Of a stretch of 54,160 nucleotides of DNA, positions 10,158 to 45,820 are shown piece by piece; the stretch's first letter is position 1, and every line of letters starts with the position of its first letter. Source of the DNA: a virus (taxonomy: Duplodnaviria; Caudoviricetes); the IMG/VR virus record IMGVR_UViG_3300032323_000448, positions 1 to 54,160 of that record; one strand, given 5' to 3'. Under the pieces are notes generated by a model, which worked only from the letters and a program-made list of their open reading frames with translations, did no database searches and had not been told where the DNA came from. The position numbers and the translations under genes were made by a program.

Positions 10158-11282
10158 TCAGCACTTCACCGCACCGCCGCGCTTCTTGGCAGGGGTGACA
10201 GTCACAGACTTCTCAGTCTTGGTGACGCTACCCGAGGGCAGATCAGGCTTATCGCCCACTCCGCCAAAGAAGCCTTTGATACGTTTGATGGCTCGACCGG
10301 GCGCACCAAGAATGGTCTCGCGCATGGCTTCGTTCTCTTTCTTTTGGTCAGAATAGAAGCGGTCATACGCGCCTTTGGAAAGGTCTTCTGAAGAGCCGCC
10401 ACCGGCCATCTTTTTGACCTTGCCGCCCTTCTTGAAGGTGCCGGACAACGCATTAATGCTCACAGGGGCGGACGGCTTTTTCTGGCCCTGGGGCATCTTG
10501 ACGACATTCCCAGAGTCATTGACCGCGCCACCCCTAGCAAACTTTTTTGCGGAGCCACCTTTCTTGTAGCCGCCAGCATTGCCCTTACGCACTTCGCCCG
10601 TCGTGGTGTTAGACACGCCAGGAGGAGTCGTAGAGACATTGCCCTCAACACCACCGCCCTTGGCATACTTACGGATGTCGCCACCCTTTTTGTAGCCACC
10701 AGCGTTGCCCATACGGACTTCGCCAGTCTTCTTCGGGGTGTGATGCTCACCTTCAGCGGTGACCATCTTGGTGTTGCGGTACTCGCCGCCTTGGTTTTCG
10801 GTGTTGATGATGCCGGACTTGGGCAAGCCACCTGCGGCCATCTTCACGCTGCCGCCTTTTTTGTAGCCGCCCTGGCCCATCACCACGCCACCCGTGGCGC
10901 AAGTCATGCCGCCTGCTTTCATGCCCTTGTGGGCCTTACTGGCAGGTTTTGCAGCGTGCTTTTCCAGCTTCTTGTCCACGGTTTTAATCGCGGACATTTC
11001 AGCCTTGTGCATCGCAGGGGTCTCCATCTCGGCCTTGCCACCCTTTTTCATGGGGGGCATGGACACGGCAGGAGGAACAGCCATTGCGCGGCGACGAGCG
11101 GCCATTGAAGGACGCATCGGACGCTTTGCAGCCATCATCCCACCGCGGGCCGGAGCAGACATGGGAGCCGCAGCGCCCATCATGCCGCCGTCAGCCTTCT
11201 TGACCGCTCCGCCCTTTTTGAGCTTGAGCTCAATGGAGGGCTCGGTGGTCATCATCTTGACCATCGGTTTGAATTGACCCAT
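10158..11282 (-). CDS. Lys/Gly/Met-rich low-complexity protein with many xxGG repeats (putative internal core/DNA-condensing protein)
   Basis: Start MGQFK after GAGGAG; repeated GGYKKGG, MKKGG, YAKGG, FARGG. Confidence 0.75.
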   Translation of the reverse strand: MGQFKPMVKMMTTEPSIELKLKKGGAVKKADGGMMGAAAPMSAPARGGMMAAKRPMRPSMAARRRAMAVPPAVSMPPMKKGGKAEMETPAMHKAEMSAIKTVDKKLEKHAAKPASKAHKGMKAGGMTCATGGVVMGQGGYKKGGSVKMAAGGLPKSGIINTENQGGEYRNTKMVTAEGEHHTPKKTGEVRMGNAGGYKKGGDIRKYAKGGGVEGNVSTTPPGVSNTTTGEVRKGNAGGYKKGGSAKKFARGGAVNDSGNVVKMPQGQKKPSAPVSINALSGTFKKGGKVKKMAGGGSSEDLSKGAYDRFYSDQKKENEAMRETILGAPGRAIKRIKGFFGGVGDKPDLPSGSVTKTEKSVTVTPAKKRGGAVKC

Positions 11283-11293
11283 GTTGGTTCTCC

Positions 11294-11743
11294 TCAAACA
11301 GTTTGAGCGTACACAACGGTCAGGCGGTAAATGCCTTGGGTCGTGCTGATCGTGCCGTTAGGGTCAACAGTGATGACAACAGATTGGGTCGTGCCAATGT
11401 CGTCCATCGCGGCCAACTGAGCGGCAGTGAAGGTCAGAGCAATGCGGCCACCACCGATCACATCCGTCGAGGACACGTATTGCGTGCCCGCGGCAGCGGT
11501 GCCGATAGTCATAGCGATTGCAGTAGCGGTGCCGCCACCAACCACCTCGTCTTGGATCGTGTCAACAAAGAAGTTGATGATCTGAGAATAGGCGGGCAGA
11601 GTCAGCGTTGCGCTGGCCGCGGTACCCGCAGCAACGGTCGTAACGGTGGTGGTCTGAGACAGAACGACGTTACCGCCGTCAACCGTGTCAGTCAGCGCCG
11701 TAGAACCGGAGCGCAGGGCAGAACCGAAGTACGTTTGTGCCAT
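11294..11743 (-). CDS. Putative capsid accessory protein
   Basis: 149 aa beta-rich, strong RBS AAGGAG, directly after MCP. Confidence 0.65.
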   Translation of the reverse strand: MAQTYFGSALRSGSTALTDTVDGGNVVLSQTTTVTTVAAGTAASATLTLPAYSQIINFFVDTIQDEVVGGGTATAIAMTIGTAAAGTQYVSSTDVIGGGRIALTFTAAQLAAMDDIGTTQSVVITVDPNGTISTTQGIYRLTVVYAQTV

Positions 11744-13304: not shown

Positions 13305-13859
13305 TTAGCCCTCAAAAATGGGGGCGAGGTTGGTTTGCTGTTTGTCAACATTGCCCAAGCCATCACCTTCAAGTCGCACAAGCGATTTGCCGCTGGAGTC
13401 ACGCGCACCTTGGAGATTCTCAACTTGCACCTCAACGCGCTGGGCCTCCTCACGGGGCTTGTCGTAGTGGTACTCGGCCATGACCGATTGATAAATTTCC
13501 ATGGGGAGCTTGAACAGCAGCATCTCGTTACACGAGATTTGACCAACATGTTCACCTGCCTTAACCCGATGATTTTCGAACCCAGGTAACTCATCCGCCA
13601 TCACGGGAACGTACCCAAGTCGCATCCTTCGGTTGATAGGATCGTAGTTGTTGGTGGTAGATAGCCAGCACAGGTGCCACCCAGGGATTGAGTCCCCAGG
13701 GATCTTGGGCAGTGCTGATTGCGTCCACTCATCGCTCCACATCTTGCGACGTTCCTGCGTTGACATGAACTTCTCTTCGGGGGCGGCGCGGCTTTGATCT
13801 TGCGAAGACCGGCTTTCACGACCACCAGCGTTGAGGGATTTTTTGAGCCTACTCTCCAT
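13305..13859 (-). CDS. Conserved head-module hypothetical protein
   Basis: IPGWHLCW...RMRLGYVPV...MLLFKLP pattern; between scaffold and MCP. Confidence 0.65.
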   Translation of the reverse strand: MESRLKKSLNAGGRESRSSQDQSRAAPEEKFMSTQERRKMWSDEWTQSALPKIPGDSIPGWHLCWLSTTNNYDPINRRMRLGYVPVMADELPGFENHRVKAGEHVGQISCNEMLLFKLPMEIYQSVMAEYHYDKPREEAQRVEVQVENLQGARDSSGKSLVRLEGDGLGNVDKQQTNLAPIFEG

Positions 13860-14379
13860 GAGAGTACTCCTTATTTTTCAATTCAGTAAGAATTCTATTC
13901 GCGTCTGCCTTGGCTTGCTTGCGTTTTTGCCAGACTTCTTTCATCTTCTTGCTTGCATTGGATCGAAAGGAGTCGTCACGAACGCGGCCACGCTGGGCTT
14001 TAGCGAATGCTTCCTTAACCGAGGGGTTTCTGTCAATGTTTGCCTGACGAATCTTTTCTTTCGTCTCGGCGCTATGTTTGTACCCAGCAGGGCCAACTTG
14101 ACCGCCGACTGTCATGTTGTAGCCGTTCGGAACAAGCGTGTTGTGTTGCTGGATCAGCATACGCTCTAGATCACAAGCAGACTGCAAGTCAAAGGAATCA
14201 GCAATGTGCGTGAAGACAAAACTGTCAAACCCGTACTCTTTGATGGCCTTATGAAACACAGACTTAGTCCAAGCGCATTTATGCGAGATCAGACGCTTCT
14301 GATACTCAGCCGTAAGCCCAACATACTGCTTGCCATTGGCAACGTTTGTAGCCATGTAGAGCGTGTATGTCGACTTCAT
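13849..14379 (-). CDS. Free-standing GIY-YIG homing endonuclease
   Basis: LYMATNVANGKQYVGLT..R..H, AIKEYG..SF, PNGYNMTVGG, KHSAETKEKIR. Confidence 0.85.
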   Translation of the reverse strand: MKSTYTLYMATNVANGKQYVGLTAEYQKRLISHKCAWTKSVFHKAIKEYGFDSFVFTHIADSFDLQSACDLERMLIQQHNTLVPNGYNMTVGGQVGPAGYKHSAETKEKIRQANIDRNPSVKEAFAKAQRGRVRDDSFRSNASKKMKEVWQKRKQAKADANRILTELKNKEYSHGE

Positions 14380-15376: not shown

Positions 15377-15814
15377 TCAGATGAAAGCACGCATGGCAAG
15401 CGGGTCACCAGTCACTTTGGCAATAACTTCATGGTCGTTCAAGATCATGAACAGTGCTGGGTCTTCAAGGTCATCCTCACCGGGGATCTTCACTTCCCAG
15501 CGATCTCCGCCCCACTTAGGGACGCGGATGTAGTCACCAACAGAAACCCAAGACCCCTCGGGCCAAGGCTGCATGGTGTCTCGATGACAGAACGCGATGG
15601 GGCCAATCGCAACGACTTTGGCAACCATGTTGTTCCACTTTTCGGTTTCCTTGGTTTCTTCAACCAAGATAATCCCGGCGCCAGTAGTACGCTTCTTCGT
15701 GCGGCGAAGCTGCACAAGAATTCTTCCACCTAGGGGTTTCGCACCGGGTTCAACGCTCGGAAATGCCCAAGCCAACTCAGCTTCGTTAAAAGCTACCGGT
15801 TCATTCATGTTCAT
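15377..15814 (-). CDS. groES: Phage-encoded GroES-like co-chaperonin
   Basis: KPLGGRILVQ...GAGIIL...KVVAIGP...VSVGD....KWGG...ILNDHEVIAKV. Confidence 0.85.
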   Translation of the reverse strand: MNMNEPVAFNEAELAWAFPSVEPGAKPLGGRILVQLRRTKKRTTGAGIILVEETKETEKWNNMVAKVVAIGPIAFCHRDTMQPWPEGSWVSVGDYIRVPKWGGDRWEVKIPGEDDLEDPALFMILNDHEVIAKVTGDPLAMRAFI

Positions 15815-15986: not shown

Positions 15987-16148
15987 TTACTTCTTCTTCG
16001 CTTGGCTCAGACCTCCTTGGGGTTTAGCGGGCGCCTTGGCGGGCTGGCCCTTGGGTTGAAGCGAGGTGCCATCGAGCTTGGCGCCCATGGCAATACGCTT
16101 GTGCATGGGCACGCCTGCGCCCATCTGCTCTTGATCACTGGTAGCCAT
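15987..16148 (-). CDS. Small basic hypothetical protein (53 aa)
   Basis: MATSDQEQ start after AAGGAGG, overlapping the portal end. Confidence 0.6.
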   Translation of the reverse strand: MATSDQEQMGAGVPMHKRIAMGAKLDGTSLQPKGQPAKAPAKPQGGLSQAKKK

Positions 16149-18660
16149 ACGGACCTCCTTTGGTTGCAAAAGTGAGAGCGGCTTTACCTTCATCCAAACG
16201 CAACTTGGCCGCATCTCGCTCAAGTCGCGCCGCTTCAATCTCTTTCTGGGTCTCCTGATCGCCCTCAGCAATCGCCAAGCGCAGGCGCAGGTCTTCCATC
16301 TTCAGCTCTGCATCCTGCTGCTGCTTGGCCTGAGCCAGTTGGATGTCAGCCTGATCCTTGGCCGTGCGGCGCTGGGTCTCAGCCATGCTCGTGCGCTCCA
16401 GCACCATCGCCTCCGGAGTCATCTGGGGCTGCGGCTTGTATTTCTGGATCTCTTGGATCATGTTCTGGATCAGCGGCATCACGCCCTGGAACACCTCGTT
16501 GGTGTCCATGTTCACATGCTGCGCTGCAACAGCAAACAACTTGTCCACCTTGCTCGTGATCGCGGGCTGGTCGTAGTCCTTAATCTCGTCGCCAGAGGAC
16601 TTCAGGACGTAGCCGTTCATGCGGTTGAGGTACCACATGGTCAGGTGCTGCTTGATGTGCTCCATGACGTTGGGCAGGAACGCCGGGGCCATCAGCGGGT
16701 TGGCGCCTAGGATTGGGTCTTTGGCGAAGTCCAGATGGCTTTGCAGGTGCGCGAGGTGGTCTTGCTCGATGTAGGCGAAGGCGGGCTTGCCAAGGGCCAT
16801 AGCCACGTTCTCGTTGGCTGCATCGCGCTTCTCAGGCGCCGGCACATCCTTCATCAGCTCGTTGACTTCCGGCACCTTGATCTGGGTCAGGAAGCGCTCA
16901 ATCACGGCCTTGCGGTCAAACAGGTCCGGGTTCTTGTCCATCACCGCCATCACAGCCTGAATCTGGGCCATGCGCTGGGTTTCGGAGAAGATGTTGGGGT
17001 CGGACACCGGGATCACATCGGTGTTGCGGTTGAAGTCTTCCTTGCGGATGTCCAACTCAGCAACCACCTCGCCCTTGCGCTGATCCTCGAGGTACCAGCG
17101 GTTCAGGCGGCCAAGAACCTTGAACAGGCGCCCCTGGGCGTCATGCAGGCGGGCATGGATCGCAGAGAACACCACGGCGCCCTGCTCAATCAGAGCCTGG
17201 GTCGTGCCCACCGGTGCGTTGGCGTTCACATCGGCAATCTTCTCCTGGGCGGTACTGACCACGCCGCGGGCAGACTTGTCCAGATAGCCCACCAGCTCAA
17301 ACAGAACCTGCGAGGGCGGGTTAAACGGCATCGGCATGGCGATCTTGCGGATGTCGTCCACGCCCGGAGCGCCTTCAATCTCAGCCACCTGGGTGACCTC
17401 GACCTGCTGGCTCTGGCCGCTGATCTTGGCGCCCTTGAGCTTGAGCATCGTGGCGGCGTTGTTGATGTGCGCGGAGTCCAGCAGGGCGCGGATACCGCCC
17501 GTCAAACCAGCAGCCAAGCCGCCGATCAGGTGCGGCAGGCCCACAGCGTAGGCGCCGCGCCAGGGGATGAACTTGAACTCAATGAGCCAGTCCAGCTTGG
17601 TCAGGGTCTGATCGCCCTCTTCCCAGTTGCGGTACAAGCCGATCACCTCAGACTCAAGCTCGTCGATCATGAGGATGTAGGGGGCCATCTTGCCCTTGGC
17701 GCGGTCGTCGTCCTCAATCTCCAGCCACGTATACACGTGATAGACGCGGCGCTCGCCGTCCACGTTGTCGGCCTCACGCTTGCGGCCTTCGATCTTGTCG
17801 TTGGCCTTCTCAGCCTTCGTCTCAACCGGGTCCATCGTGGCGCGGACAAAGTCGGTGTCGATGTACAGGCCCTGGGCAACCCGGCGCTTGTACTCCCACT
17901 CGGTGATGTCGTTCTGCTCAGTAACCCGCTGGGCGGTGTAGAAGTTGGCAGCGGAGAACGGCAGCAGGATGTTGTCGATGGGAACGAACTCAGCGCAGGG
18001 GCGCTTCTTTTCCTCGTCGTACCACAACTTCATGAACTGAGAGCCGCCCAAGGGGAGCTGGGTCAGCATCTGCTCCTGCTCGTCGCGGAACTCTTCGATC
18101 TGCTCGGTAAGCTGCCAGTTGATGTAGTCGCGCTTGCGCTCGGCAATCGCCAGCTTCTCTTTGTCCGTGTCGCCCACGATCTTGGTACGGGCAGGGCCAG
18201 ACGGCGGGAACAGTTCTTTGATGGCGCGGGCAGCAAAGTCCACGCAAGCCTCGGCCATGACGGGGTGAACCACCTTGGAGGCGCCGCTAAACGTCGCGCC
18301 ACCGGGGGCATCCTTGCCCATGCCGGTGCGGCGCAGGCCTTCCTCGTACTGCTTGTCCCGCAGCTCACGGGCGTTGCGGTCTTTCTCAATCAGCTCAATG
18401 TACCGAGAGGCAATCGTGTCCAGAGTAAAGTTATCAACGACGCCGTCAGCGAGGTTGCTGTAGAAGTCCTCGTCCTCAGAGGGGCCCTTGAGGTCTTCAT
18501 TGAGGCTCACCACCGCAGAGCCGTCGGGCAGCTCCTCGATGTTGGAGTCGTCCAGCTCCAGCTCAACCTCCACCGAACCATCCTCGTTCTCAACCGGCAT
18601 GCCAGGGATACCTTGAATCTCTTGGCCGTAGCCCTGCTCGATGGGAAATTGAGTAGCCAT
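16135..18660 (-). CDS. Portal protein (P22-like with C-terminal barrel)
   Basis: 841 aa; GASKVVHPVMAEACVDFAAR, LPLGGSQFMK, APVGTTQALIEQG, Q-rich tail; upstream of scaffold/MCP. Confidence 0.85.
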   Translation of the reverse strand: MATQFPIEQGYGQEIQGIPGMPVENEDGSVEVELELDDSNIEELPDGSAVVSLNEDLKGPSEDEDFYSNLADGVVDNFTLDTIASRYIELIEKDRNARELRDKQYEEGLRRTGMGKDAPGGATFSGASKVVHPVMAEACVDFAARAIKELFPPSGPARTKIVGDTDKEKLAIAERKRDYINWQLTEQIEEFRDEQEQMLTQLPLGGSQFMKLWYDEEKKRPCAEFVPIDNILLPFSAANFYTAQRVTEQNDITEWEYKRRVAQGLYIDTDFVRATMDPVETKAEKANDKIEGRKREADNVDGERRVYHVYTWLEIEDDDRAKGKMAPYILMIDELESEVIGLYRNWEEGDQTLTKLDWLIEFKFIPWRGAYAVGLPHLIGGLAAGLTGGIRALLDSAHINNAATMLKLKGAKISGQSQQVEVTQVAEIEGAPGVDDIRKIAMPMPFNPPSQVLFELVGYLDKSARGVVSTAQEKIADVNANAPVGTTQALIEQGAVVFSAIHARLHDAQGRLFKVLGRLNRWYLEDQRKGEVVAELDIRKEDFNRNTDVIPVSDPNIFSETQRMAQIQAVMAVMDKNPDLFDRKAVIERFLTQIKVPEVNELMKDVPAPEKRDAANENVAMALGKPAFAYIEQDHLAHLQSHLDFAKDPILGANPLMAPAFLPNVMEHIKQHLTMWYLNRMNGYVLKSSGDEIKDYDQPAITSKVDKLFAVAAQHVNMDTNEVFQGVMPLIQNMIQEIQKYKPQPQMTPEAMVLERTSMAETQRRTAKDQADIQLAQAKQQQDAELKMEDLRLRLAIAEGDQETQKEIEAARLERDAAKLRLDEGKAALTFATKGGPYGYQ

Positions 18661-18669
18661 ATTCAGTCC

Positions 18670-21600
18670 TTACCGCTTTTTCTTGATCGAGCCACCGCGC
18701 TTATTGCCAGTTTCCTTGCGAAGCTGCTCAATGTTCTCGGGGGTGGCGTTCATTTGAAGTGCCTTCCACTCTTCAAAGCTGGGAAGCTGTTTGGTAGGCA
18801 CGTTCTTGGTTTCTTGGATGTATCTGGCGTGTTCGGCGCTCTTCTCGGCAAACTCTTTGCTCAAGCTCCGCATTTTAGTTAAAGCCTCAACAGCAGCCTT
18901 TGACAAGCCACCAGCCGCTAGTTTAACTACGCCACCCTTCTTTTTACCAGTCAGCCGCTTCATGGCCTCTTCGTAGATCTTGATCTCGTCGATCATCTGC
19001 TGATCAATGATCTGGCGGGGGCCAACCATCTTCAGGGAGCCGAACTCCTGCGGGGCTTGGGCCGGGTTGGCGCGAACCGCGGCAAGAGTGTCCGGAAAAG
19101 ACAGCTCGTAGGGCATCGGGTACCGAGACTGGCCCATGAACTCGCCGGGGATGTCGTGGCTATAGGTGGGGTGCTCAGACAGCTTCAGGCCCTCTCTCGG
19201 CTTCATGCGGCCCAGGGAGAAGCCAGTAACGCCGGTCTCAAGGTCTCGCAGCGCTGGCTCGGTGATGGCAAAGCGGATGTCCTGGCCGCTGGGCAGATTG
19301 AACGCTTCGGTGACCTTGGGCTGCTGCATCAGGGCGTTGAAGTGCTTACGCAGCTCAGGATCGACCGAGAAATGCAGGTATGCGGCGCCGGTGTCTTCAA
19401 TGCCAGGGAAACTCGGGCGCGGGCCAGACTTGGGGCTACCGCGGCGAATCAGGTCGTTGAAGCCATCAATCTGAGCCTGGGTCATCTTGGACAGGTTGAT
19501 AGCCTGCAAGTTGGCATCAGCGAAGTGCTGGGCGTAGTTGATGGACTCCGGGCCCATCATGACGTACTTGCCCAGAACCGGAGCGCCGTACTGCTGGGCA
19601 ACCTCGGCGGCCAAGTTCTGCACTCGAGTGGCCGGACCGATACCAGAGGCCCAGAACTCAGGGCGCCCTAGGCCATACAGCGGGCCGCCGTGTTGCGGCG
19701 AGGCAGACTCCAGCCGAACGTCCCCGACGGCATGCAAAGCCCTGTCGGTGATGGTCGGATCGCCCGGAATGCCGATCACGACATTGCCCTTGAGCTTCTC
19801 AACATCCACAGTCTCAGGGGTCTTGACCTCCCCGCGGACATCCACGGGAAGTTCTTTCTCGCGCTCAAACTGCTTTCTGGTCTTGCCAGCAACAGTCACC
19901 GCGCTCTTGGGCTTCTCGCGCACGTACTCGCTCAGAACCTGCGGAGCCATGCGCTCGGCAATGGCCTCAATCTCCGGCTTGGTCTTGGCTGCGGCGCGGG
20001 GCAGGGGCTTGAGAGCCTCCTTGAGGGCCTTGGCAACGCCGCCGCCAGCCATCTGCTTATCCTCCAGCTCCAGACGCATTGTGTCGGGGTTGTCGGAGAT
20101 GTGAACGCGGCCACCATGAGCTTTGCCCTCAATGGGCAATCCAGTTACCGGATCTTTGCCGGTTTCTAGCCGATAAAGAGTGTCCTTCAGACTGTCAGCC
20201 TCATCTCGGGTCAGATAGTTTGGAACTTCAACTCCAGACTTCCGCAACTTTTCAGCTTGGGTTAAATCAAAAATCCCACTTGGCCCGACCGCCGGATAGT
20301 CAAACCCAGCGTTTCTTAAATCCCTTACATCTTCCCACTTGCCGCTGCGGACAAAGTCTTGCACATAAGGCAGGTACTCGGCGCTAGGAGCGGCGTTTTG
20401 CTTGCCTTTGATTTGGGAGATGCTTGGAACATCATCAACTTGAGAAACCTCAACCGTCACATGAGGCTGGCCTTTAGGATCAACCAAAGAATAAACCTTG
20501 GCCTCTCCACTCTTGATAGCTTCCCAGCCACCATGTCCATAACCAAGACTTCCTTGTCCCCCGGAGCCTTCAATCCAATCTGGATGGCCTTTGGGCGGCT
20601 CGTATCCACGCACGGAGTGGCCCATAGCCTCAGACTCGGCAGCAAAAGCGCCGGGGCGGTTCAGTTCAATCCACCGGTATCCTTCTGGATACTCTTTGTA
20701 GACAGGCAGGCCCTCTCGAGCGGCAGCGCTGGCAGCCTGCATCTTGTCAGCGAGCTCCTTGTCGTACTCAGCGGTGCGGCGAACAGCCTGCTCCATGCTG
20801 ACCTTGTTTAGTTGATCAGGGCGGATGCGGCCAGAGGCAAGGTCTTCCCGCAGCACATCAAGCATGTGATCAATGCGAAGCGCCGCGAGTGGGTTGTCAG
20901 GAACCCTGTTGGTCGAACTGAACGACTCCAGCGAATAAACCGGAGTCGATGGATCGACCTTGTCCATCCAAGGCTCATCCAATCCATACTGTTTGAGTTC
21001 GCCCACCGTCTGAGTTTTGATCGGATAGTCGGTCCTAGCTTCCCACTGAACGGCAGCAGGAGATTTTCCCATCGGCTCAGGCATCCCGGCCCGCTGTCTT
21101 TTCAAGTCAACAACCGACTTGACAATTGCATTTGGCGCTGCGGGGATAGTGTTTGCGGGAGAAAGATGAGTTGCCCCCTCTTCTGCCATCTTGCGTACCG
21201 GATCATCCGGCGTCCCCATCTCTTTTTTAATGTAGTTGGTTAGGTTGCGATCAACCCAGTTGTTGATGGCGACCTTTTGCTCAAGGTCAGAGATAACACG
21301 ATTGACATGAGCCGCAGACTCAGGAGTTTCCAGCTTCGCAATAACCTCTGGCGGGTACTGCTCCCGCATCTGCTTGAGCAAATCAGCCGGATCAGAATCA
21401 CCGCGAAAGCCCGCCCGCTTAAGGTAATCCTGAACAACCTTTTCAACGTCTCCAGCCTTCCAGTTGCCACCCCTGGTGGGTTTCACTACGCTCACCGCGG
21501 GTTGACCAGCAGCCATGACGAAGTCGCGACCAGCACGAGCCACGGCGCTAGGAATGGCGGTAACGGCGCGGATGGGCGCTCCAGGGCCGGTATAGAACCC

Positions 21601-22527
21601 GCCGCCGATCTGACCCAGGCCGGTAGCTGCACGCTCTAAGGCGCTCGGGTTCTCTTGGCGGAAGGGAATCCTCTTCTCCATATCTTCAGAGGTCGGCAGG
21701 CGCGTCTCCAGCCCCACCTCACCCTGACGGTACTTCCCAGGCGTTGCGGCTCCTGTGGCCTCGCCATAGGCCTGCACGCCGGGGGTGTTTGCCAGAAGGC
21801 GAGCAATCAACTCAGCATCCCCAGGCGCACCGGTGGCTCCAGCAGCAAAGCCGCGGGCAAGGCCTCGGAACATCGCCTCATCTGCGTTATCGGTGCGACC
21901 AGCCCGGCGGGGCTTCATCTGCGGGAAGACGCCGAACGCTGCACCGCCTTTGTCGAACTTGCGCTCCTCCAGCTCCATCCGCATGGTGTCAGGGTTGGAG
22001 GAGATGTAGACCTTGCCGCCTCTAGCCATCTCCACATCGCCCTTGATGGCAGACGCGGGAATCTCGAACTCGTACACCTCACCTTCGTCGGACAGGGAGC
22101 GGACTCGATAGCCCGGCTCGTAGGGTGTGCGCCGTGCTCTGCCGGTCTCTGGGTCGATGATGGGCCGGCCCAGGCCAGGGCCAAGAGTTGGGTGATCCTC
22201 GCGCATCACCTGATTGCCCGTGCGGGTGCGGAACAAGATTTCGTAGGGCGCTTTGTTTTTGGCTGCGCTGTCTTCAGTGAACACGCGCTGGCCCTTATCG
22301 TACTTGTAGTCGAACCCCTCCATCATCTTGCGCTTGAGCTCCGCCTCCATGCGGATGCGGTCTCCCAACGAGGTGTAGGAGTCCTGTAGGGTCGTCAGAT
22401 CCTTCTGAGCCACCACCGGCGCCTTCATGCCAGCAGACTCTGCGGCCTTGCTGATGGCCTCTTCAGCGCCCTTCTTGATAGGCTTCCTTGCTGCTTGGCC
22501 GACGGCCTTGATGAGTGGGTTGACCAT
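18670..22527 (-). CDS. Large modular (polyvalent-type) protein including a PcfJ-like domain
   Basis: 1285 aa; ESEAMGHSV...VYSLVDPKGQPHVTVEV...QIKGKQN PcfJ-like core; repeated linker modules. Confidence 0.7.
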   Translation of the reverse strand: MVNPLIKAVGQAARKPIKKGAEEAISKAAESAGMKAPVVAQKDLTTLQDSYTSLGDRIRMEAELKRKMMEGFDYKYDKGQRVFTEDSAAKNKAPYEILFRTRTGNQVMREDHPTLGPGLGRPIIDPETGRARRTPYEPGYRVRSLSDEGEVYEFEIPASAIKGDVEMARGGKVYISSNPDTMRMELEERKFDKGGAAFGVFPQMKPRRAGRTDNADEAMFRGLARGFAAGATGAPGDAELIARLLANTPGVQAYGEATGAATPGKYRQGEVGLETRLPTSEDMEKRIPFRQENPSALERAATGLGQIGGGFYTGPGAPIRAVTAIPSAVARAGRDFVMAAGQPAVSVVKPTRGGNWKAGDVEKVVQDYLKRAGFRGDSDPADLLKQMREQYPPEVIAKLETPESAAHVNRVISDLEQKVAINNWVDRNLTNYIKKEMGTPDDPVRKMAEEGATHLSPANTIPAAPNAIVKSVVDLKRQRAGMPEPMGKSPAAVQWEARTDYPIKTQTVGELKQYGLDEPWMDKVDPSTPVYSLESFSSTNRVPDNPLAALRIDHMLDVLREDLASGRIRPDQLNKVSMEQAVRRTAEYDKELADKMQAASAAAREGLPVYKEYPEGYRWIELNRPGAFAAESEAMGHSVRGYEPPKGHPDWIEGSGGQGSLGYGHGGWEAIKSGEAKVYSLVDPKGQPHVTVEVSQVDDVPSISQIKGKQNAAPSAEYLPYVQDFVRSGKWEDVRDLRNAGFDYPAVGPSGIFDLTQAEKLRKSGVEVPNYLTRDEADSLKDTLYRLETGKDPVTGLPIEGKAHGGRVHISDNPDTMRLELEDKQMAGGGVAKALKEALKPLPRAAAKTKPEIEAIAERMAPQVLSEYVREKPKSAVTVAGKTRKQFEREKELPVDVRGEVKTPETVDVEKLKGNVVIGIPGDPTITDRALHAVGDVRLESASPQHGGPLYGLGRPEFWASGIGPATRVQNLAAEVAQQYGAPVLGKYVMMGPESINYAQHFADANLQAINLSKMTQAQIDGFNDLIRRGSPKSGPRPSFPGIEDTGAAYLHFSVDPELRKHFNALMQQPKVTEAFNLPSGQDIRFAITEPALRDLETGVTGFSLGRMKPREGLKLSEHPTYSHDIPGEFMGQSRYPMPYELSFPDTLAAVRANPAQAPQEFGSLKMVGPRQIIDQQMIDEIKIYEEAMKRLTGKKKGGVVKLAAGGLSKAAVEALTKMRSLSKEFAEKSAEHARYIQETKNVPTKQLPSFEEWKALQMNATPENIEQLRKETGNKRGGSIKKKR

Positions 22528-22530
22528 CAG

Positions 22531-24756
22531 TTATTCCTCACACCAGGACAGCGGGCCTTTGGCGGGGCCGCCTTTAGCGTATGGCTCAGGCAGCAAGATG
22601 GCTGGGCGGGGCGGGCCTTCACCGCTGCGGTAGGCGTTCAGGTCTCCCTCGGGGAGAACCATGTTGTCGGTCATCTCCAACTCTCTGCGGAGCGCCTCGA
22701 TGTACTCTTCTGGAGTGCTACGGGGGAAAGGCTCACGCAGCTCGGCGCGGGGCATCAGACGGACCAGACTCGTGGGTTGACCAGACGCGGCCATGGCGCG
22801 GCTGCGGTGACGCCCCTCGTGGCCCGAGATGAACGGCAAGAGAGGCAGACCTTGCTCTTGTTTGTTGATGCCCAGGAACGGCACATCATCAAACCCGCCG
22901 CGCAGTTTTTGCAAGTACTGGATGTACTCGTCCGTCGGCAGCGAGTATTTGTCAATCTCGCCAGTCCAGGGCATCAACCCCTTTTGGTGGGGGACCATCT
23001 CCAGCGCGAACCTCTCAAAGTCCGCGGGGTTCATGGTCATCATGGCCTGGGCGTTGTCACCAAGAAAGGCCTGCCGCAGGGCTTCCTCTTGATACAGCTT
23101 CTCCAAGTCCTTCACCTCATCCGCGGCACGCTGCACGCGCTTGGCGCCGTAGTCGCCTTTGGACTGACGGGCCGCTTCCTGCACGCGGGTCACAGCGCTA
23201 GGGATGACAACCGCGGGGGCCTCGACAGCAGCCTTCTGCGCTGACCGGATGGCCTTAACCAGAGCCCCGCCACCGGAGTATTCCCGCGGGGGCTTGGTGA
23301 TCAGGTCTTCCTCGGGGATGTCGTAGCTGCTGTACGGGTACTCCTGGGCACGCTGCGCTGGCGTCATGTTGCGTCGTGCTTGAGTAGCTCGGGCCTCAGC
23401 CTCGCCAGCAAGACGCTGGTAGTACTCCTGTGCTGCTGCCTGTTGAAGCTGCCTGTCAACCTCAGGACCAACCTTGTATGAGGCCAGATATTCTTTGTAG
23501 GCTTTGTCTAGACGTTCCGGCTCTGGGACTTCCCTGCCGTAGTTGAATTTGCGGAACTCTTCCACGGTCATGGGCGTGGAAACCTCTTCACGCTTGCGCT
23601 TAAGGATCTCAAACGCCCTAGGATCGCTGAAAGCCATCGTCTTGCTGCCGCCGGGGCTCATGCCCTCAATCGTCTGTACCGCGTGCTGCATCTCGTGCAA
23701 GGAGACAGAGCGAGGATCATCCAGCATCCCAGGATGGTAGACATCCATCTCCATGTAACCTCTTGAGCCAGGAGCGGAAGATTTAGGCAAGACAGACAAA
23801 GCGCCTTTGACAGACGGAGAGCCACCATAGCCTCCAGCCGTGACTTGCAGGTTCTCTAGCTCAGGGTAGGCGCGGTAAAGCTCTGGGTGCTCAATGATGG
23901 TCTCAGCTCGCACGCCTTCGCTGGGCTTGGCCTTGTACTCCTCCAGCTCCATCTTGGCCCGGTTAATGCGTTCACGCACGCCCTTCTTGGCTTCGGTCAG
24001 TTGCTTGGGGAACAAATCCTTCTGTTTGATCGGCTTAATTTTTTGCTTGAGAACGTCAATACCGGACTCAATCACCTGGGCCGCCTCCGCACGCTCAGGG
24101 TTTGTCAGAAACCGGGAGGCCTGATCGCTGATTTCCTGGCGCTGGATACCGTCAGCACCGCGGAAGGTTCCGGTCTCGCGCCAGATCTCCACAGGATCAA
24201 CGCCGGCCTTTTCCATCCGAGCCGCCGCCTCTGCCTTGGCTTGATCCCATGTCTTGGCCTTGGGGCCGATGAACATCCGCGTGGCAGGCTGGCCCGCAGC
24301 CATCACGAAGTCCCGACCGCCTTTGACCACCGCCTGCGGGATGCCGGTAATCAGCCGCGCTGGAGAGCCAGGGCCCAAGTAAAAGCCGCCAGCAAGCTGC
24401 CCCAGGCCCGTAAAGGCCTCAGAGGTCGGCCCGGTACCCTTAAACGGCAGGCGCTTTTCAATGTCTTCAGAGGTAGCAAGAACGGGCTCGTAGCCCACGC
24501 GGTTGGCCCCGAAGATCTGGCCTAGCATCGCCATGCCCTCTTCTTTCGTCTTAGGCATGACGAACTGCTCAGGGCCTTGGATGTTCAGCAGGAGCCGGGC
24601 GATGGACTCGAGGTCCCCAGGCATCCCGGCCACGCCAGCGACAAACCCGCGGGCAACATCAATCGGGATGTTCTTGGCGGCCTCCCGGTCCTGAACCGAG
24701 CGGCGGGGTTTCATTTGGGGGAAGACCCCAAAAGCCGCAGATTGATTGTCAGCCAT
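22531..24756 (-). CDS. Large polyvalent protein: LPD23-like domain, zincin-like HExxH region, ParB/Srx-like module
   Basis: MFIGPKA...IWRETG.FRGADG..RQEISD; LHEMQHAVQ..EG; Y.RLAGEAEAR; GHEGRHR; start taken at MADNQ. Confidence 0.7.
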   Translation of the reverse strand: MADNQSAAFGVFPQMKPRRSVQDREAAKNIPIDVARGFVAGVAGMPGDLESIARLLLNIQGPEQFVMPKTKEEGMAMLGQIFGANRVGYEPVLATSEDIEKRLPFKGTGPTSEAFTGLGQLAGGFYLGPGSPARLITGIPQAVVKGGRDFVMAAGQPATRMFIGPKAKTWDQAKAEAAARMEKAGVDPVEIWRETGTFRGADGIQRQEISDQASRFLTNPERAEAAQVIESGIDVLKQKIKPIKQKDLFPKQLTEAKKGVRERINRAKMELEEYKAKPSEGVRAETIIEHPELYRAYPELENLQVTAGGYGGSPSVKGALSVLPKSSAPGSRGYMEMDVYHPGMLDDPRSVSLHEMQHAVQTIEGMSPGGSKTMAFSDPRAFEILKRKREEVSTPMTVEEFRKFNYGREVPEPERLDKAYKEYLASYKVGPEVDRQLQQAAAQEYYQRLAGEAEARATQARRNMTPAQRAQEYPYSSYDIPEEDLITKPPREYSGGGALVKAIRSAQKAAVEAPAVVIPSAVTRVQEAARQSKGDYGAKRVQRAADEVKDLEKLYQEEALRQAFLGDNAQAMMTMNPADFERFALEMVPHQKGLMPWTGEIDKYSLPTDEYIQYLQKLRGGFDDVPFLGINKQEQGLPLLPFISGHEGRHRSRAMAASGQPTSLVRLMPRAELREPFPRSTPEEYIEALRRELEMTDNMVLPEGDLNAYRSGEGPPRPAILLPEPYAKGGPAKGPLSWCEE

Positions 24757-24789
24757 AGGCGAGCCCTTTGAATGCAAGGGATTATGCCC

Positions 24790-24969
24790 TTAGTGCTTTC
24801 GCTGGTCTATCCATTCTTGCAGGGCCTCCAGGAGGGCCTCGGCTTGCCAATCAGCAATGTCCCCGGGGGCCAGAACCTCGAACCGGCCTTGGCACTGACG
24901 CACGGTTACGGCTGGCGCATCTGGGGCGGCAGTCACATCCCATAGCTCAACCAGTCCGTTCATTGGCAT
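24790..24969 (-). CDS. Hypothetical protein
   Basis: ~59-aa ORF after a GGGGG RBS-like run. Confidence 0.5.
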   Translation of the reverse strand: MPMNGLVELWDVTAAPDAPAVTVRQCQGRFEVLAPGDIADWQAEALLEALQEWIDQRKH

Positions 24970-24981
24970 AGCGCCCCCATC

Positions 24982-25025
24982 AAAGCGAACGCAGTGCGGA
25001 TGCAATGCGAACGCATAGCGATTGA
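24982..25025 (+). repeat. Four tandem 11-bp repeats (consensus AnTGCGAACGC), iteron-like
   Basis: aaagcgaacgc/agtgcggatgc/aatgcgaacgc/atagcgattga. Confidence 0.65.
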
Positions 25026-25029
25026 ACCA

Positions 25030-25307
25030 TCACGGCTGGGGACTGGTGGGCATTCCTGTATGGGCGGGCCAGTGGTATGTACCCGCTTGGACTTCCCTGA
25101 CTAGCCAATCCCCATGCGTAATAGTCCCCGTCTCTCCGGGGCGTCACGTCGTTCTATGGGCTACTGGCTCCAGACGTTCTCGTGCCGCAATTACTCACAA
25201 CCCACTTGGGCCAGACCCCGTGTACCGGCTGGACGGCAACCGCCTCAAGGGCGATTGGGGAATCTCAACAACAGTGTCGTCACGCTGGGGAATATAGCTC
25301 ACCAGCA
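25030..25307 (-). ncRNA. Putative structured RNA elements (two adjacent motifs)
   Basis: No convincing ORF; TGGGGATTGG/CCAGTCCCCA stem, CCCCG-GAGAGA-CGGGG hairpin. Confidence 0.45.
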
Positions 25308-25622
25308 TCAAAAGATCAAAGACTCTTTAACCTGCGGTTCAAGCATCTCTTGCATGGCAGCTTGAGCCGCGGCCTCCGTGTGTTCGCAGTCCTCCCAAGG
25401 CAAAACATCGCAGGCGCAACTTGGGCGGTAGGACCCCGTGATCTTGGGCTTCCTTGGCTTCATGTCCTGAGCCATCCTGCCCAGCAGGGGAATCCACTTT
25501 GAGAAGGGCGTCAGGTCTTCGACCCCCTGGATGTACCAGACCTTGCGGTCAGCATCCCACTTGGCGCCTAGCGCCTTGGCCTCATCCTTCTCAGCGTAGG
25601 GACAGTTCAGGTTGATCCTCAT
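25308..25622 (-). CDS. DUF5710-domain protein
   Basis: LNCPYAEKDEAKALGAKWDADRKVWY; C-terminal C.C....DCEH. Confidence 0.75.
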   Translation of the reverse strand: MRINLNCPYAEKDEAKALGAKWDADRKVWYIQGVEDLTPFSKWIPLLGRMAQDMKPRKPKITGSYRPSCACDVLPWEDCEHTEAAAQAAMQEMLEPQVKESLIF

Positions 25623-25653
25623 AGCCTTCCAATTGATTAGCAGATTCAGGAAA

Positions 25654-26008
25654 CTGTGGCAAAGGAATGCCTACCCGACCAAAGCCAGGAGGCACACCTT
25701 CCAACCGATCCCTTCATCGAGGTTCCCAGTGGACCAGCCCGTAGCAATGCCGGCTGGCTTGCCGAGCTTTCCCCCCATTGCGGGGTCTGCTGGGACTCGG
25801 CAACCTCGCTGGCTGGTCAGCCGGACTTGAACCGACTGGGCCATCAAGGCGTGTATGCCCCCACTGCGCCTGCATCTTCTGTGCGCTCTCGCCCCAGGTC
25901 AGAACGTTGTAGGCCCGGTGGACTGCGCCCTACGCCTTGCGGCTTCCTGCGCTTCCCTCATGCCGGCCCATAACCCGATAGACCCCTAGAGCAAGGTCGC
26001 GGCCACAA
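25654..26008 (-). ncRNA. Putative ~350-nt structured non-coding RNA
   Basis: Seven nested long-range helices, GCAA loops, T-loop-like GGTTCAAGTCC; no minus-strand ORF spans it. Confidence 0.55.
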
Positions 26009-26011
26009 AGC

Positions 26012-26160
26012 AAAAAACCCATTGGTGAACGAGCTTTGGGCTTGGTTGCCGCATACCCGTAGTGCCATACCACGTACAAGTAGCTTTGACGAAGCCCGCT
26101 CACCAATGGGTTCGCGGATGTCGCTGTAATGGAGCTACGACGGGTTACCAAGCCGTCGAT
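26012..26160 (-). ncRNA. C4-like antisense RNA/attenuator with leader target sites
   Basis: ~22-bp stem AACCCATTGGTGAGCGGGCTTC/AAAGCTCGTTCACCAATGGGTT followed by a T-run; internal segments complementary to the leader. Confidence 0.55.
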
Positions 26161-26167
26161 GAGCTGC

Positions 26168-26195
26168 ATTGTACAGAAGTCCCAGGGCGTGTCAA
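26168..26195 (-). promoter_or_regulatory. Sigma70-like promoter
   Basis: TTGACA-N16-TACAAT on the minus strand. Confidence 0.65.
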
Positions 26196-26207
26196 GGAGT
26201 GACAAAA

Positions 26208-26477
26208 CTAGTTTTGGTCAATTTTCTTGAGATCGACCAGCTTCTCACGGTTGACCAGCTCAAACCCGTGCTGTAGCAAATAGTTATCAATGACGTTGGT
26301 GCGGTCAACAGACCAGATGAACCGGGGCTTGATGTGCCAACGGAAGCGAAAGCGCCAGCCATGCACCTCGTGCAGCGATGGCGTGTACCACATCCACGAA
26401 GCGACAAACCCACCGGGGGCGCGGTACAGGTTCAGGCCGATCTTCTTAAAGTGGCCTTCTTTGGTGAAGTGAATCAT
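26208..26477 (-). CDS. Hypothetical protein
   Basis: 89 aa with AAGGAG RBS after terL. Confidence 0.6.
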   Translation of the reverse strand: MIHFTKEGHFKKIGLNLYRAPGGFVASWMWYTPSLHEVHGWRFRFRWHIKPRFIWSVDRTNVIDNYLLQHGFELVNREKLVDLKKIDQN

Positions 26478-26488
26478 CCGTCTTCTCC

Positions 26489-27910
26489 TTAAACAGCGTA
26501 GGGGTTCTCGCGCTTCTTGCCGCCAGCGTCGATCACATCGTCCTCGTCGTAGTCGTCCGGGGCTGGGCCGTCAATGTCGATGAAGCCAGCATCCCGCAGG
26601 AACCGCAGGGCCTGGGTGGTCACATCCACGAAGTCATCGTGGGTCGTGTCAGGGAAGGCGCATAACTGCGAGACCAGGGGCTCGGCCCAGTCCCGCACAT
26701 ACCCAGGCCTCTGGCTGGACTCGGGAATCCAGACCCTGCCCCTGGCGAACAGGGAGGACACGATGTTCAGGCGCTGCATCTTGTCGGCCTTGCCTGGGTT
26801 GTAGGCCCGCACAGGCATATGCGCCCTCTGAAGGTCTTGGATCAGCGAGATGCCCGCGGACTTGTCCTCGATCAGGATCAGGTCCACCCGCTTTCTGTCC
26901 CGGCCCTCCCCGTAGACCACCTCGTACTCGTCTTGAACCTTGGGGCGCAGGTCAGGATACTGGAGGCGGTCCTGCCAGCAGTCCAGCAGCATGACGGACA
27001 TCGGCCCGTCCATGGGCTTGAAGACGCCCCAAGTACCCGCCGCGGTGGGGTCGTTGATGGTCTTCTCGCTCGTGGCGCAGTCGTAGGACTGGAGGATGTA
27101 CTCGAACTTGGGGAACGGCTTGTCCACCGGCCAGAGTTTGAGCATGTCCCGCTTGACGATGCCAGCCTCCTCCGGGTCGATGATCTCAGCGTAGATCTCC
27201 TGCCTCCCGAGCTTCGTCCCCTCGTACTGCAAGATCTGCTTTTGAAAGCTCGGCGCAAGGTTGGCAAGGTTGGCGTAGGTCGAGGCCGTCGTCAGGTGGA
27301 CATCGTCGCCCTCCCGCCCCACCAGATCCACGATGAGGTCTTTCGGTTTAGGCGTGGTGGTGCAGAGGATGCGGGTACGCTTACCTAGGCGAACGCCGAA
27401 CATGATCTGGTCCCAGGCGTCTTGCAGGTAGTCCCAGGCGGCCAGCTCGTCGCACCAAGCCCCGTGGAACTGCGGCCCCCGAAAGCGCTCAGGCTCCGAT
27501 GCCGGGATGCCTTTGATCAGGCTGCCGTTGATCAGCTTGAGCTCATGGTAGGCCTTGTTGTAGTCCTCGATCAGGGTCTGGGGGATGATGTTGATCAGCC
27601 CTGAGTCACCCTCAAAGCAGGTGGCCCGGACGTCAGCAGAGGTAGGAGCGGCGACGAGCCAGCGGGTGCCGGGCTCCTTCCAGGCCCACCAGCCTACCTG
27701 CTCGGCAGCGGTTCGGGTCTTACCGGCGCCGCGGCCAGCAAGAAGCAGCCAGATCGTCCACCAGTCGCCGGAGGGCAGGATCTGGTGGTCGTGGGCTGTG
27801 GCAAGCCACTTGGAGCGCCACTCGAAGGCGGCACGCTCCGCAGCAGGAAGCAGGGCGTACTGGCGGCGGGTCTTTTCATCGCGCAGCAGCTCAACCAGCG
27901 GGTCGCTCAT
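26489..27910 (-). CDS. terL: Terminase large subunit
   Basis: Walker A AGRGAGKT, Walker B WCDE, TTTPKP, nuclease SYD...IEDKSAG...HDDFVD. Confidence 0.95.
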   Translation of the reverse strand: MSDPLVELLRDEKTRRQYALLPAAERAAFEWRSKWLATAHDHQILPSGDWWTIWLLLAGRGAGKTRTAAEQVGWWAWKEPGTRWLVAAPTSADVRATCFEGDSGLINIIPQTLIEDYNKAYHELKLINGSLIKGIPASEPERFRGPQFHGAWCDELAAWDYLQDAWDQIMFGVRLGKRTRILCTTTPKPKDLIVDLVGREGDDVHLTTASTYANLANLAPSFQKQILQYEGTKLGRQEIYAEIIDPEEAGIVKRDMLKLWPVDKPFPKFEYILQSYDCATSEKTINDPTAAGTWGVFKPMDGPMSVMLLDCWQDRLQYPDLRPKVQDEYEVVYGEGRDRKRVDLILIEDKSAGISLIQDLQRAHMPVRAYNPGKADKMQRLNIVSSLFARGRVWIPESSQRPGYVRDWAEPLVSQLCAFPDTTHDDFVDVTTQALRFLRDAGFIDIDGPAPDDYDEDDVIDAGGKKRENPYAV

Positions 27911-44724: not shown

Positions 44725-44734
44725 GGTTCAGTCT

Positions 44735-45811: not shown

Positions 45812-45820
45812 GTTCGGCTC

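Follow-up and report, generated by a model that had tools for sequence, protein, structure and literature searches.

A constant domain with exchangeable payloads, and candidate head-loading adaptor, in the terminase–portal slot of an uncultured podophage lineage

The 54,160 bases analysed here (the window) are the whole of the IMG/VR virus record IMGVR_UViG_3300032323_000448 (Duplodnaviria; Caudoviricetes), in which two adjacent giant genes, P0001 and P0002, fill the interval between the terminase and portal genes on the minus strand. We find that both genes encode polyvalent (multi-effector) cargo proteins and that each contains a copy of the same module, which is the constant part of recombining cassettes. 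The domains on the C-terminal side of the module are exchanged at a fixed junction, GQPA, and whole cassettes occur joined in a single gene or divided among several, the join or break usually falling at linkers of the form [YF]A-x-GG-x-V. The module is confined to one head-gene slot of one virion lineage, in 78 IMG/VR loci. Our favoured reading, which we hold tentatively and place a little short of an even chance, is that the module is a lineage-specific head-loading adaptor for exchangeable cargo.

Results

One module in two giant genes

An earlier reading of the window (the original prediction) had placed a module of about 150 residues at the N-terminus of P0001 and in the interior of P0002, at positions that lie within 2 bases of the in-frame limits given for the minus strand in Table 1. 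The plus-strand frames of both stretches contain stops, and the minus strand translates cleanly. Alignment of P0001 with P0002 by BLASTP gave 88 identities in 200 positions (44%, E 9e-41), beginning at the peptide AAFGVFPQMKPRR, and all real similarity between the two proteins is lost after GQPA, in agreement with both the shared module and the sharp end that had been predicted. A six-frame profile scan detected these two copies and no others, whether in the window or in the whole record. The AAFGVFPQMKPRR codons shared by both copies show synonymous differences along their length, which indicates conservation at the protein level and not a recent duplication of DNA.

Copy 1 was rightly described as N-terminal. 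The reading frame of P0001 can be opened at a TTG codon, and its likely start is the ATG at 24756 (MADNQ...), giving a protein of 741 residues as in the database copy P0023 and in relatives. Also correct were the LPD23-like region and HEMQH motif said to follow this copy, with Pfam LPD23 starting within three residues of it (residues 168–222, E 9.8e-10) and HEMQH standing 190 residues on (residues 361–365), as was the FDKGG said to stand directly before the internal copy. The PcfJ-like region assigned to the sequence after copy 2 held by homology: P0002 is collinear over all 1285 residues with P0009 (65.5% identity), which matches Pfam PcfJ (E 9.3e-7). It did not hold as a match of P0002 itself, for which there was no Pfam match at E<=1, PF14284 (PcfJ) included.

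Exchange of the neighbouring domains

A profile of the module (A1), built from 30 diverse copies, matched 541 cluster representatives at E<=1e-3 (313 at E<=1e-10) among 1.84 billion proteins, and the best 150 of these 541 clusters were listed. In the 238 proteins retrieved, A1 detected 253 copies, 225 proteins having one copy, 11 two and 2 three. Among 217 near-full copies, 118 begin within the first 40 residues of the protein and 99 are internal.

Clustering of the 120 residues after those copies that have at least 50 residues downstream (n=222) produced 19 unrelated follower classes. The commonest, with 139 copies, begins VNVVKPKGGNW and has PcfJ some 350–450 residues later; the others are LPD23/HExxH (30 copies), an ART-PolyVal/DUF3990-like HGSPHKF domain (20 copies), three unnamed classes (8, 6 and 6 copies) and 13 singletons. 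Upstream, 22 classes were distinguished among the 150-residue stretches that precede 102 internal copies. Pfam scans of 84 proteins placed ART-PolyVal or DUF6973 upstream of the module in some proteins and downstream in others, and relatives add ART-PolyVal, PcfJ, ParB_N, DUF3990, DUF6973 and ASCH domains to the repertoire of partners. The tabulation of downstream domains that had been proposed therefore yields a module that is not always before the same domains.

Module pairs that are 93–98% identical have different follower classes, and with the 19 classes in 222 copies they uphold the claim of a constant module joined to different payloads. For example, the N-terminal copies of P0006, P0007 and P0010 (96–98% identical) lead into a singleton, LPD23 and an ART-like domain, respectively. 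For 71 of 212 copies the nearest copy in another protein carries a different follower. A FastTree phylogeny of these 212 copies (10 of the 222 were omitted as not near-full) requires at least 58 changes of follower class, compared with a mean of 74.3 and a minimum of 69 in 200 label shuffles; this count is inflated by tree error on a domain of 125 residues, so the near-identical pairs are the firmer evidence. Conservation of the module also exceeds that of the 320 residues after it in 96.5% of the 8128 pairs formed by 128 copies of the commonest class (median 57% versus 36%).

The protein P0007 is a fused counterpart of both window genes, aligning to P0001 over residues 8–504 and then to P0002 from residue 188, which indicates that cassettes are fused and split as well as swapped. 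This organisation, with its constant unit, sharp junction and exchangeable payloads, is much like that of polymorphic toxins, as had been proposed. The accompanying description of the module as a delivery or ejection leader is upheld as regards a constant unit with swappable payloads; delivery or ejection would be its proposed role, and the internal copies speak against a strict leader. As the module need not be N-terminal, the word 'leader' is too strong, and a carrier or adaptor placed anywhere in the chain fits better.

An uncatalogued domain

The module never stands alone. A word-indexed search for longer proteins returned 124 relatives of 264–2000 residues, and a search for proteins of the same length returned only 4, which are fragments because each lies on a contig of at most 1239 bp. 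The module consists of two conserved halves and a variable insert, with a core of about 125 residues; the copies in the window are about 30 residues longer. Residues R31, G32, G36, G39, D43, S86, P94 and G115 are invariant, R14, D18, E45, R49, T85, Y118 and R126 are near-invariant, and many Gly, Pro, Arg and Thr positions are more than 90% conserved. An AlphaFold2 (AF2) model made with the alignment was of moderate confidence (pLDDT 67.7) and all-helical (helices 21–51, 86–92, 102–117 and 123–146), with the first 20 residues, those of the AAFGVFPQMKPRR peptide, disordered. We conclude that the module is an uncatalogued domain composed of a conserved N-terminal peptide (AAFGVFPQMKPRR), probably disordered, followed by Gly/Ala-rich helices.

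The original prediction had raised a known catalytic domain as the alternative, and the module matches no catalytic or other family in Pfam, PHROGs, the PDB or fold searches. For 30 module members, Pfam at E<=10 returned chance-level rows only (Thymosin in 4/30, best E 0.02) with no Phage_Mu_F, and PHROGs at E<=1 returned no real match (best E 0.026). The best PDB match by sequence profile had E 0.78. Searches of NCBIfam, Pfam, PHROG and PDB sequences with the module and both whole proteins found nothing beyond LPD23. Structure prediction, which had also been suggested, led to no clear fold match: Foldseek with the AF2 model found nothing in the PDB (best E 4.1), a wide VIA-align comparison with 48,161 chains had a best Z of 5.1 (rmsd 6.1, 75 residues aligned), which is within the noise for helical models, and the sole return from a BFVD fold search was a member of the module family, A0A6J5KNR3. 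We found no description of the module in the literature on PcfJ in phages and on related phages, and two papers (PMC9599517, PMC10149686) held nothing relevant on polyvalent or internal virion proteins.

Two candidate identities were set aside. A likeness to P22 gp16, a lead only from an ESM Atlas cluster (0.89), found no confirmation in hhalign comparisons with gp16, gp20 and gp7, which gave probabilities of 0.3, 0.6 and 0.1%. A transmembrane reading of the Gly-rich helices was set aside on a hand hydropathy calculation, as a matter of opinion only. Prediction of a complex between the portal (841 residues) and the module scored 0.00 in two runs without controls, which is evidence neither way.

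One slot of one virion lineage

In IMG/VR, 190 stretches with the module were confirmed, and we analysed the best 80 of them (78 loci). In every listed locus the order is the large terminase gene (terL), module and portal on one strand, wherever the DNA reaches. A terL match was present in 74 of the 78 loci, a portal match in 53 and both in 49, and the slot between them measures 2.4–6.8 kb (median 4.4 kb). The misses of terL and portal arise because the locus DNA stops short; the four loci without terL have less than 1.7 kb upstream of the module. Identity to the window across loci is 42–95% for the portal and 80–98% for the capsid protein. The 49 complete slots comprise 43 with the region that precedes PcfJ (the pre-PcfJ region) and only 6 with the LPD23-HExxH unit. 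The module had no match in 50,697 GenBank phage records or in 72,556 plasmids, and none in one genome from each of 185,579 prokaryote species, a scan made with a single peptide pattern from which diverged copies could escape.

By tblastn with the portal, the nearest deposited phages are the uncultured Caudoviricetes MW202545 (61%), the Caulobacter phages RW, KcrB, RLK and GB2A (44.5%), the Roseobacter phages CRP-901 and CRP-902 and the pelagiphages HTVC027P and HTVC023P. The slot varies within the wider lineage; in phage DSL-LC04 it encodes a PcfJ-like protein with a pre-PcfJ region that matches P0002, and the first 225 residues of this protein have no match to the module profile.

The first payload and a second lineage

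Copy 1 is followed by a conserved unit of 335 residues, which was found in 261 proteins. In 36 aligned sequences HE.QH and GEAE.R are invariant (H196, E197, H200 and G293-E294-A295-E296), and HExxH is present in all 120 listed relatives of the unit. The AF2 model of this LPD23-HExxH unit has a pLDDT of 94.3. Pfam matches of the 36 members were weak (DUF6782 in 6/36, best E 0.0053; Peptidase_M78 in 3/36; Zn_peptidase_2 in 3/36), Foldseek found nothing, and the VIA fold rows cover the helical hairpin of residues 58–123 only. Judged from its motif, the unit is a putative zincin-like peptidase.

The 120 listed relatives divide into 54 with the module and 66 with other N-terminal regions. Some module-less relatives keep the AAFGVFPQ peptide only, and the module profile matches P0251 through a 13-residue N-terminal peptide alone. 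In a second lineage, known from contigs of about 34 kb with a different terminase, portal and capsid, the unit follows an 83-residue leader, in a gene that lies just upstream of terL. This copy is 37% identical to residues 168–486 of P0001, and LPD23 starts exactly at the junction. Sister genomes have the same leader (68% identical), then an unrelated payload and a gene for a small membrane protein; the 83-residue leader alone was matched in 11 of the 80 loci listed. The rule of a lineage-specific front part joined to a shared, exchangeable payload is thus not peculiar to the module. Loci of this lineage are L089:8001-9299, L120:8001-9041 and L112:7227-8258, the alternative payload is phrog_3170-like, and the membrane-protein gene beside the payload, of 118 residues, might encode an immunity-like partner.

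Linker and tail motifs

The linker consensus, [YFM]-A-x-G-G-x-V, marks the boundaries between domains and occurs 592 times in 240 proteins, a 16-fold excess over the 37 occurrences in shuffled sequences (maximum 52 in 20 shuffles). For 86 of 102 internal modules, the 30 residues directly upstream contain a GGx[VIL] motif. GG-x-V motifs are present in 196 of 199 module proteins of at least 600 residues and fall within the last 45 residues in 149 of the 199. After the C-terminal motif come tails of a few recurring types, for example a basic one (..GLIKVKNKRKAKA) and one of the form ..LS...K.C.C.D. In P0002 a longer linker, GG.V.IS.NPDTMR.ELE, is repeated at residues 168 and 803. The GG-x-V motif is also found in slot proteins that lack the module, with 5 occurrences in that of MW202545 and 3 at the N-terminus of that of DSL-LC04.

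A scan of 34 open reading frames (ORFs) of the window found 8 motifs in the ORF at 10158–11297, 4 in P0002, one in each of three ORFs and none in the rest. The product of ORF 10158–11297 has 379 residues (16.6% G, 14.5% K, net charge +46) and no match in Pfam, PHROG or NCBIfam, and its motif copies are possibly a related addressing or capsid-associated motif. Homologues of this ORF occur after the capsid gene in L067 and L009.

Genome context

The stretch is a whole virus record, 96% complete by CheckV, with 57.6% G+C and genes almost all on the minus strand. The source virus is an uncultured podophage whose relatives are phages of the HTVC023P/CRP-901 and Caulobacter RW types. PHROG and Pfam scans identified the small and large terminase genes (28503–26489), the portal gene (18660–16135), a Cpn10-like gene, a probable scaffold gene, an HK97-type capsid protein gene (12706–11789), SU10-type adaptors, tail fibres, an SLT-domain protein and an endolysin. 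A 327-residue ORF is a weak scaffold candidate (Atlas 0.87; Phage-scaffold in 14% of members). The features of both cargo genes and their surroundings are collected in Table 1.

Table 1. Positions of the cargo genes, their parts and other features in the window
Feature	Position	Strand	Remarks
Cargo gene 1 (P0001)	22531..24777	-	748 residues from TTG (ORF, translation); order: module, LPD23, HExxH unit, C-terminal domain, YAKGG tail
Module copy 1, N-terminal	24283..24741	-	Residues 13-165; profile matches E 1.2e-58 (window), E 2.8e-60 (record)
Payload 1, LPD23 and HExxH unit	23278..24282	-	Residues 166-500; putative zincin-like metallopeptidase
LPD23, within payload 1	24112..24276	-	
HEMQH, within payload 1	23683..23697	-	
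GEAEAR, within payload 1	23389..23406	-	
C-terminal tail of P0001	22534..22581	-	Residues 733-748; YAKGG motif; tail class recurs in relatives
Cargo gene 2 (P0002)	18670..22527	-	1285 residues; order: N-terminal domain, linker, module, pre-PcfJ/PcfJ-like region, linker, C-terminal domain, basic tail
Linker 1	21946..22026	-	Residues 168-194; GG-x-V motif and IS.NPDTMR.ELE, directly before module copy 2
Module copy 2, internal	21496..21945	-	Residues 195-344; BLASTP and profile
Payload 2	20446..21495	-	Pre-PcfJ region through PcfJ-like core; belongs to the commonest follower class
Start of pre-PcfJ region	21460..21495	-	VSVVKPTRGGNW
PcfJ-like core	20446..20526	-	
Linker 2	20038..20121	-	Residues 803-830; second copy of GG-x-V and IS.NPDTMR.ELE, no module after it
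C-terminal tail of P0002	18673..18705	-	Basic; KRGGSI motif
Portal gene	16135..18660	-	Directly downstream of P0002; PHROG portal E 1e-22, tblastn to annotated portals
Large terminase gene	26489..27910	-	Upstream edge of the variable slot; PHROG terminase large subunit
Gly/Lys-rich ORF	10158..11297	-	379 residues, after the capsid gene; 8 copies of [AKRH]xGGx[VIL]
Cpn10/GroES-like gene	15377..15814	-	Between portal and scaffold; Pfam Cpn10 E 7e-8
Homing-endonuclease-like ORF	13849..14379	-	PHROG 314; also matches a GIY-YIG family
Homing-endonuclease-like ORF	2332..2901	-	PHROG 314
Small ORF	24790..25005	-	Just upstream of P0001; also at L001:6007-6222
Cargo–terL gap (about 1.5 kb)	25000..26489		Short ORFs only: 104 aa at 25308-25622, 89 aa at 26208-26477
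SLT-domain protein and neighbours	41810..47356	-	397 aa, beside three large ORFs (573, 358 and 511 aa) without family matches

The Cpn10-like gene keeps its position across the lineage, and also in Caulobacter phage RW, MW202545 and DSL-LC04. The small ORF just upstream of P0001 resembles by eye the 71-residue ORF at the same place in MW202545, a likeness that rests on ..RFE.. and ..AL..WI..R.. stretches. A tRNA scan of the window found none; Caulobacter phage RW has a tRNA-Val in the gap that corresponds to the one between the cargo genes and terL. The two homing-endonuclease-like ORFs lie within the head and tail-fibre gene blocks. The SLT-domain protein and its neighbours, which are distinct from the cargo, probably serve this phage as internal or ejection proteins. 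One IMG/VR locus (L035:11342-13909) has one in-frame stop within the portal reading frame.

Discussion

The module is tied to one virion lineage and its partner domains roam phages and, according to the literature, plasmids, so it is most likely part of the vehicle, not of the target. These partners also occur without the module, with pre-PcfJ/PcfJ in DSL-LC04 and LPD23-HExxH behind other leaders. As a head-loading adaptor, the module would address cargo to the phage head by docking on a component of the capsid interior during assembly, and the attached enzymes would be packaged and later leave with the DNA. Such an adaptor could be placed anywhere in the chain and would not strictly be an N-terminal signal.

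This reading has precedents in known systems. Iyer et al. 2017 (PMC5512222) argue for the packaging and injection of phage polyvalent proteins in portal–terminase contexts. In the part of that paper available to us, which also treats Alt and phage P1 DdrB, these proteins share with P0001 and P0002 a giant multidomain architecture, a portal–terminase context and heavy domain shuffling, and they share LPD23, ART-PolyVal, ParB_N and metallopeptidase-like domains (the last putative here) with the module family (PMC5512222). P0001 combines several unrelated conflict-type domains in one polypeptide (module, LPD23 and HExxH unit), and the window and the IMG/VR loci alike place the genes among those for virion and packaging proteins. 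Unlike the domains of polyvalent proteins, the module matches no Pfam LPD family (LPD1–LPD40) or any other. The lineage-restricted constant domain, fixed junctions and recurrent linker and tail motifs found here are a further difference, as they are not described in the same part of the paper (PMC5512222).

The closest phage analogue of a constant carrier with swappable payloads is the MuF polymorphic toxins of temperate phages, for which the available part of Jamet et al. 2017 (PMC5576092) describes a conserved head domain by the portal gene and variable C-terminal effectors. Neither P0001 nor P0002 matches Phage_Mu_F at E<=1. The module differs from MuF in that its gene lies upstream and not downstream of the portal gene, in that it may be internal and present in up to three copies with payloads of polyvalent type, and in that its phages are uncultured, with no prophage copy in the single-pattern scan of prokaryote genomes.

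In polymorphic toxins such as CdiA and Rhs, a conserved demarcation motif precedes the variable C-terminal domain. The GQPA junction is similarly sharp, with unrelated domains after it and near-identical constant parts bearing different tips; unlike CdiA and Rhs, the context is one of phage head genes and not of a secretion system, and the constant part is not always N-terminal. In T4 the capsid-targeting address is a peptide that is short, N-terminal and cleaved, with a dependence on the head protease. T4 internal proteins and Alt, like the P1 Dar proteins, are accessory enzymes loaded into the head by an address element and injected with the DNA, which is a parallel to the adaptor reading. 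In contrast to the T4 address, the module is a folded domain of 125 residues, and no protease was found in the window. New here are the domain itself (which is in no library searched) and its behaviour as the constant unit of recombining cassettes in uncultured podophages of lytic appearance. The motifs of the linkers and tails are also new, as is the parallel in a second lineage.

Several observations weigh against a head-loading adaptor. No tool result ties the module to packaging, docking or ejection, and its members are known from sequence only, with 0 matches among GenBank phages. The module profile has no similarity to the putative scaffold (14385-15368), nor is there similarity to MuF or P22 ejection proteins, and the confidence of the AF2 model (pLDDT 67.7) is moderate. 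The corresponding slot of MW202545 (portal 61% identical) holds one 890-residue protein without the module, and that of Caulobacter phage RW holds a tRNA only and no cargo gene; the module is therefore neither necessary for the virion nor the sole way into the slot. Of the near-full copies, 99/217 are internal, and N-terminal domains that bear no module themselves (ART-PolyVal, DUF6973) precede some copies. The real address signal may be the GG-x-V motif, which has a wider distribution than the module. Finally, restriction to one lineage would also be expected if the module targets something specific to the hosts of that lineage.

This last point leads to an alternative that we regard as unlikely, in which the module is a host-directed effector or regulatory domain, for instance one that binds a common host factor, and is simply the most conserved of the shuffled domains with no role as a carrier. 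Polyvalent proteins shuffle all their domains, according to the part of Iyer et al. 2017 (PMC5512222) available to us, and the module can be internal with other domains upstream. Its invariant residues R31, D43 and S86, together with the near-invariant polar residues, could form an active or binding site, and slot proteins without the module exist. Against this, many domains of polyvalent proteins also occur solo in the same part of that source (PMC5512222), and the module never does. Moreover, unlike ART-PolyVal, LPD23, PcfJ and ParB_N, it was not found outside one virion lineage, it is present nearly always once per protein whatever the other domains, and it matches no enzyme family.

A more elaborate version of head loading, which we would also call unlikely, is that this abundant lineage may load arbitrary enzymes into the capsid by a modular 'addressing grammar'. 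Its four elements may be the AAFGVFPQ... peptide, the helical module, GG-x-V at every domain boundary and at the C-terminus, and a few classes of tail. Encapsulin cargo-loading peptides are short, contain Gly, stand at the termini of cargo proteins and bind the inner face of an HK97-fold shell. The placement of GG-x-V at linkers and C-termini is comparable, as an analogy only. Under such a grammar, GG-x-V peptides, which recur 8 times in the Gly/Lys-rich product of ORF 10158–11297, would behave like encapsulin cargo-loading peptides and attach to the interior surface of the HK97-fold shell or to packaged DNA, and the module would dock once per cargo. With the same payloads standing behind different leaders in other lineages, phage heads would have lineage-specific 'postcodes' for a shared pool of injected effectors.

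It is distinctly unlikely, in our view, that the [YF]A-x-GG-x-V motifs and conserved C-terminal tails alone are the true head address and the module a spacer, folding unit or similar. The abundance of the motif (592 versus 37 expected), its presence in 196/199 module proteins and within the last 45 residues of 149/199, its position before 86/102 internal modules and its occurrence in the module-less slot proteins of MW202545 and DSL-LC04 all fit such a role, as do the 8 repeats in the ORF after the capsid gene compared with 0–1 in 32/34 window ORFs. However, Gly/Lys-rich low-complexity sequence inflates patterns of this sort, the motif is a putative binding element only, and the stronger constraint on the 125-residue module than on its neighbours would be left unexplained.

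The linkers could alternatively be sites of processing: a protease of phage or host, or the HExxH unit, would cleave the polyprotein within the GG linker directly before AAFGVFPQ, and each segment set free would start with the module. We consider this quite improbable. Internal copies do begin right after ..KGG and N-terminal copies, with the same peptide, 4–20 residues after the Met, the GG motif lies upstream of 86/102 internal copies, and P0001 has a conserved HExxH unit. Processing of polyvalent proteins by metallopeptidases is proposed in the available part of Iyer et al. 2017 (PMC5512222). On the other hand, a head protease was sought in the window with PHROGs, Pfam and NCBIfam and none was recognised. 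Where the capsid protein matches protease–capsid fusion families, it does so in their capsid part only, and the LPD23-HExxH unit is present in only 6/49 complete slots. The lack of a recognised protease and the rarity of the unit weaken the idea of processing, and linker 2 of P0002 has no module after it.

Very improbable, finally, is an oligomerisation domain that bundles P0001 with P0002, or copies of one protein, through small-residue helices: the Gly/Ala-rich helices with invariant G32, G36, G39 and G115, the moderate confidence expected of a monomer model with a missing partner, and the presence of one module in each cargo gene of genomes with several would suit it, but most genomes are single-copy and the window copies are only 44% identical.

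The way in which tailed phages choose accessory proteins for head packaging and injection is known for few model phages, and the module provides a testable candidate for an address element. A constant, lineage-specific domain with exchangeable payloads is present in hundreds of protein clusters from uncultured aquatic phages, and the logic of polymorphic toxins, with a fixed trafficking part, a variable effector and a sharp junction between them, thereby extends beyond the MuF family to cargo genes of lytic-looking podophages. The boundaries of the module and of the LPD23-HExxH unit can enter family libraries and so improve how giant phage genes now called 'hypothetical' are annotated. Should the module or the GG-x-V peptides prove to load cargo, chosen proteins could be put into phage particles with their help.

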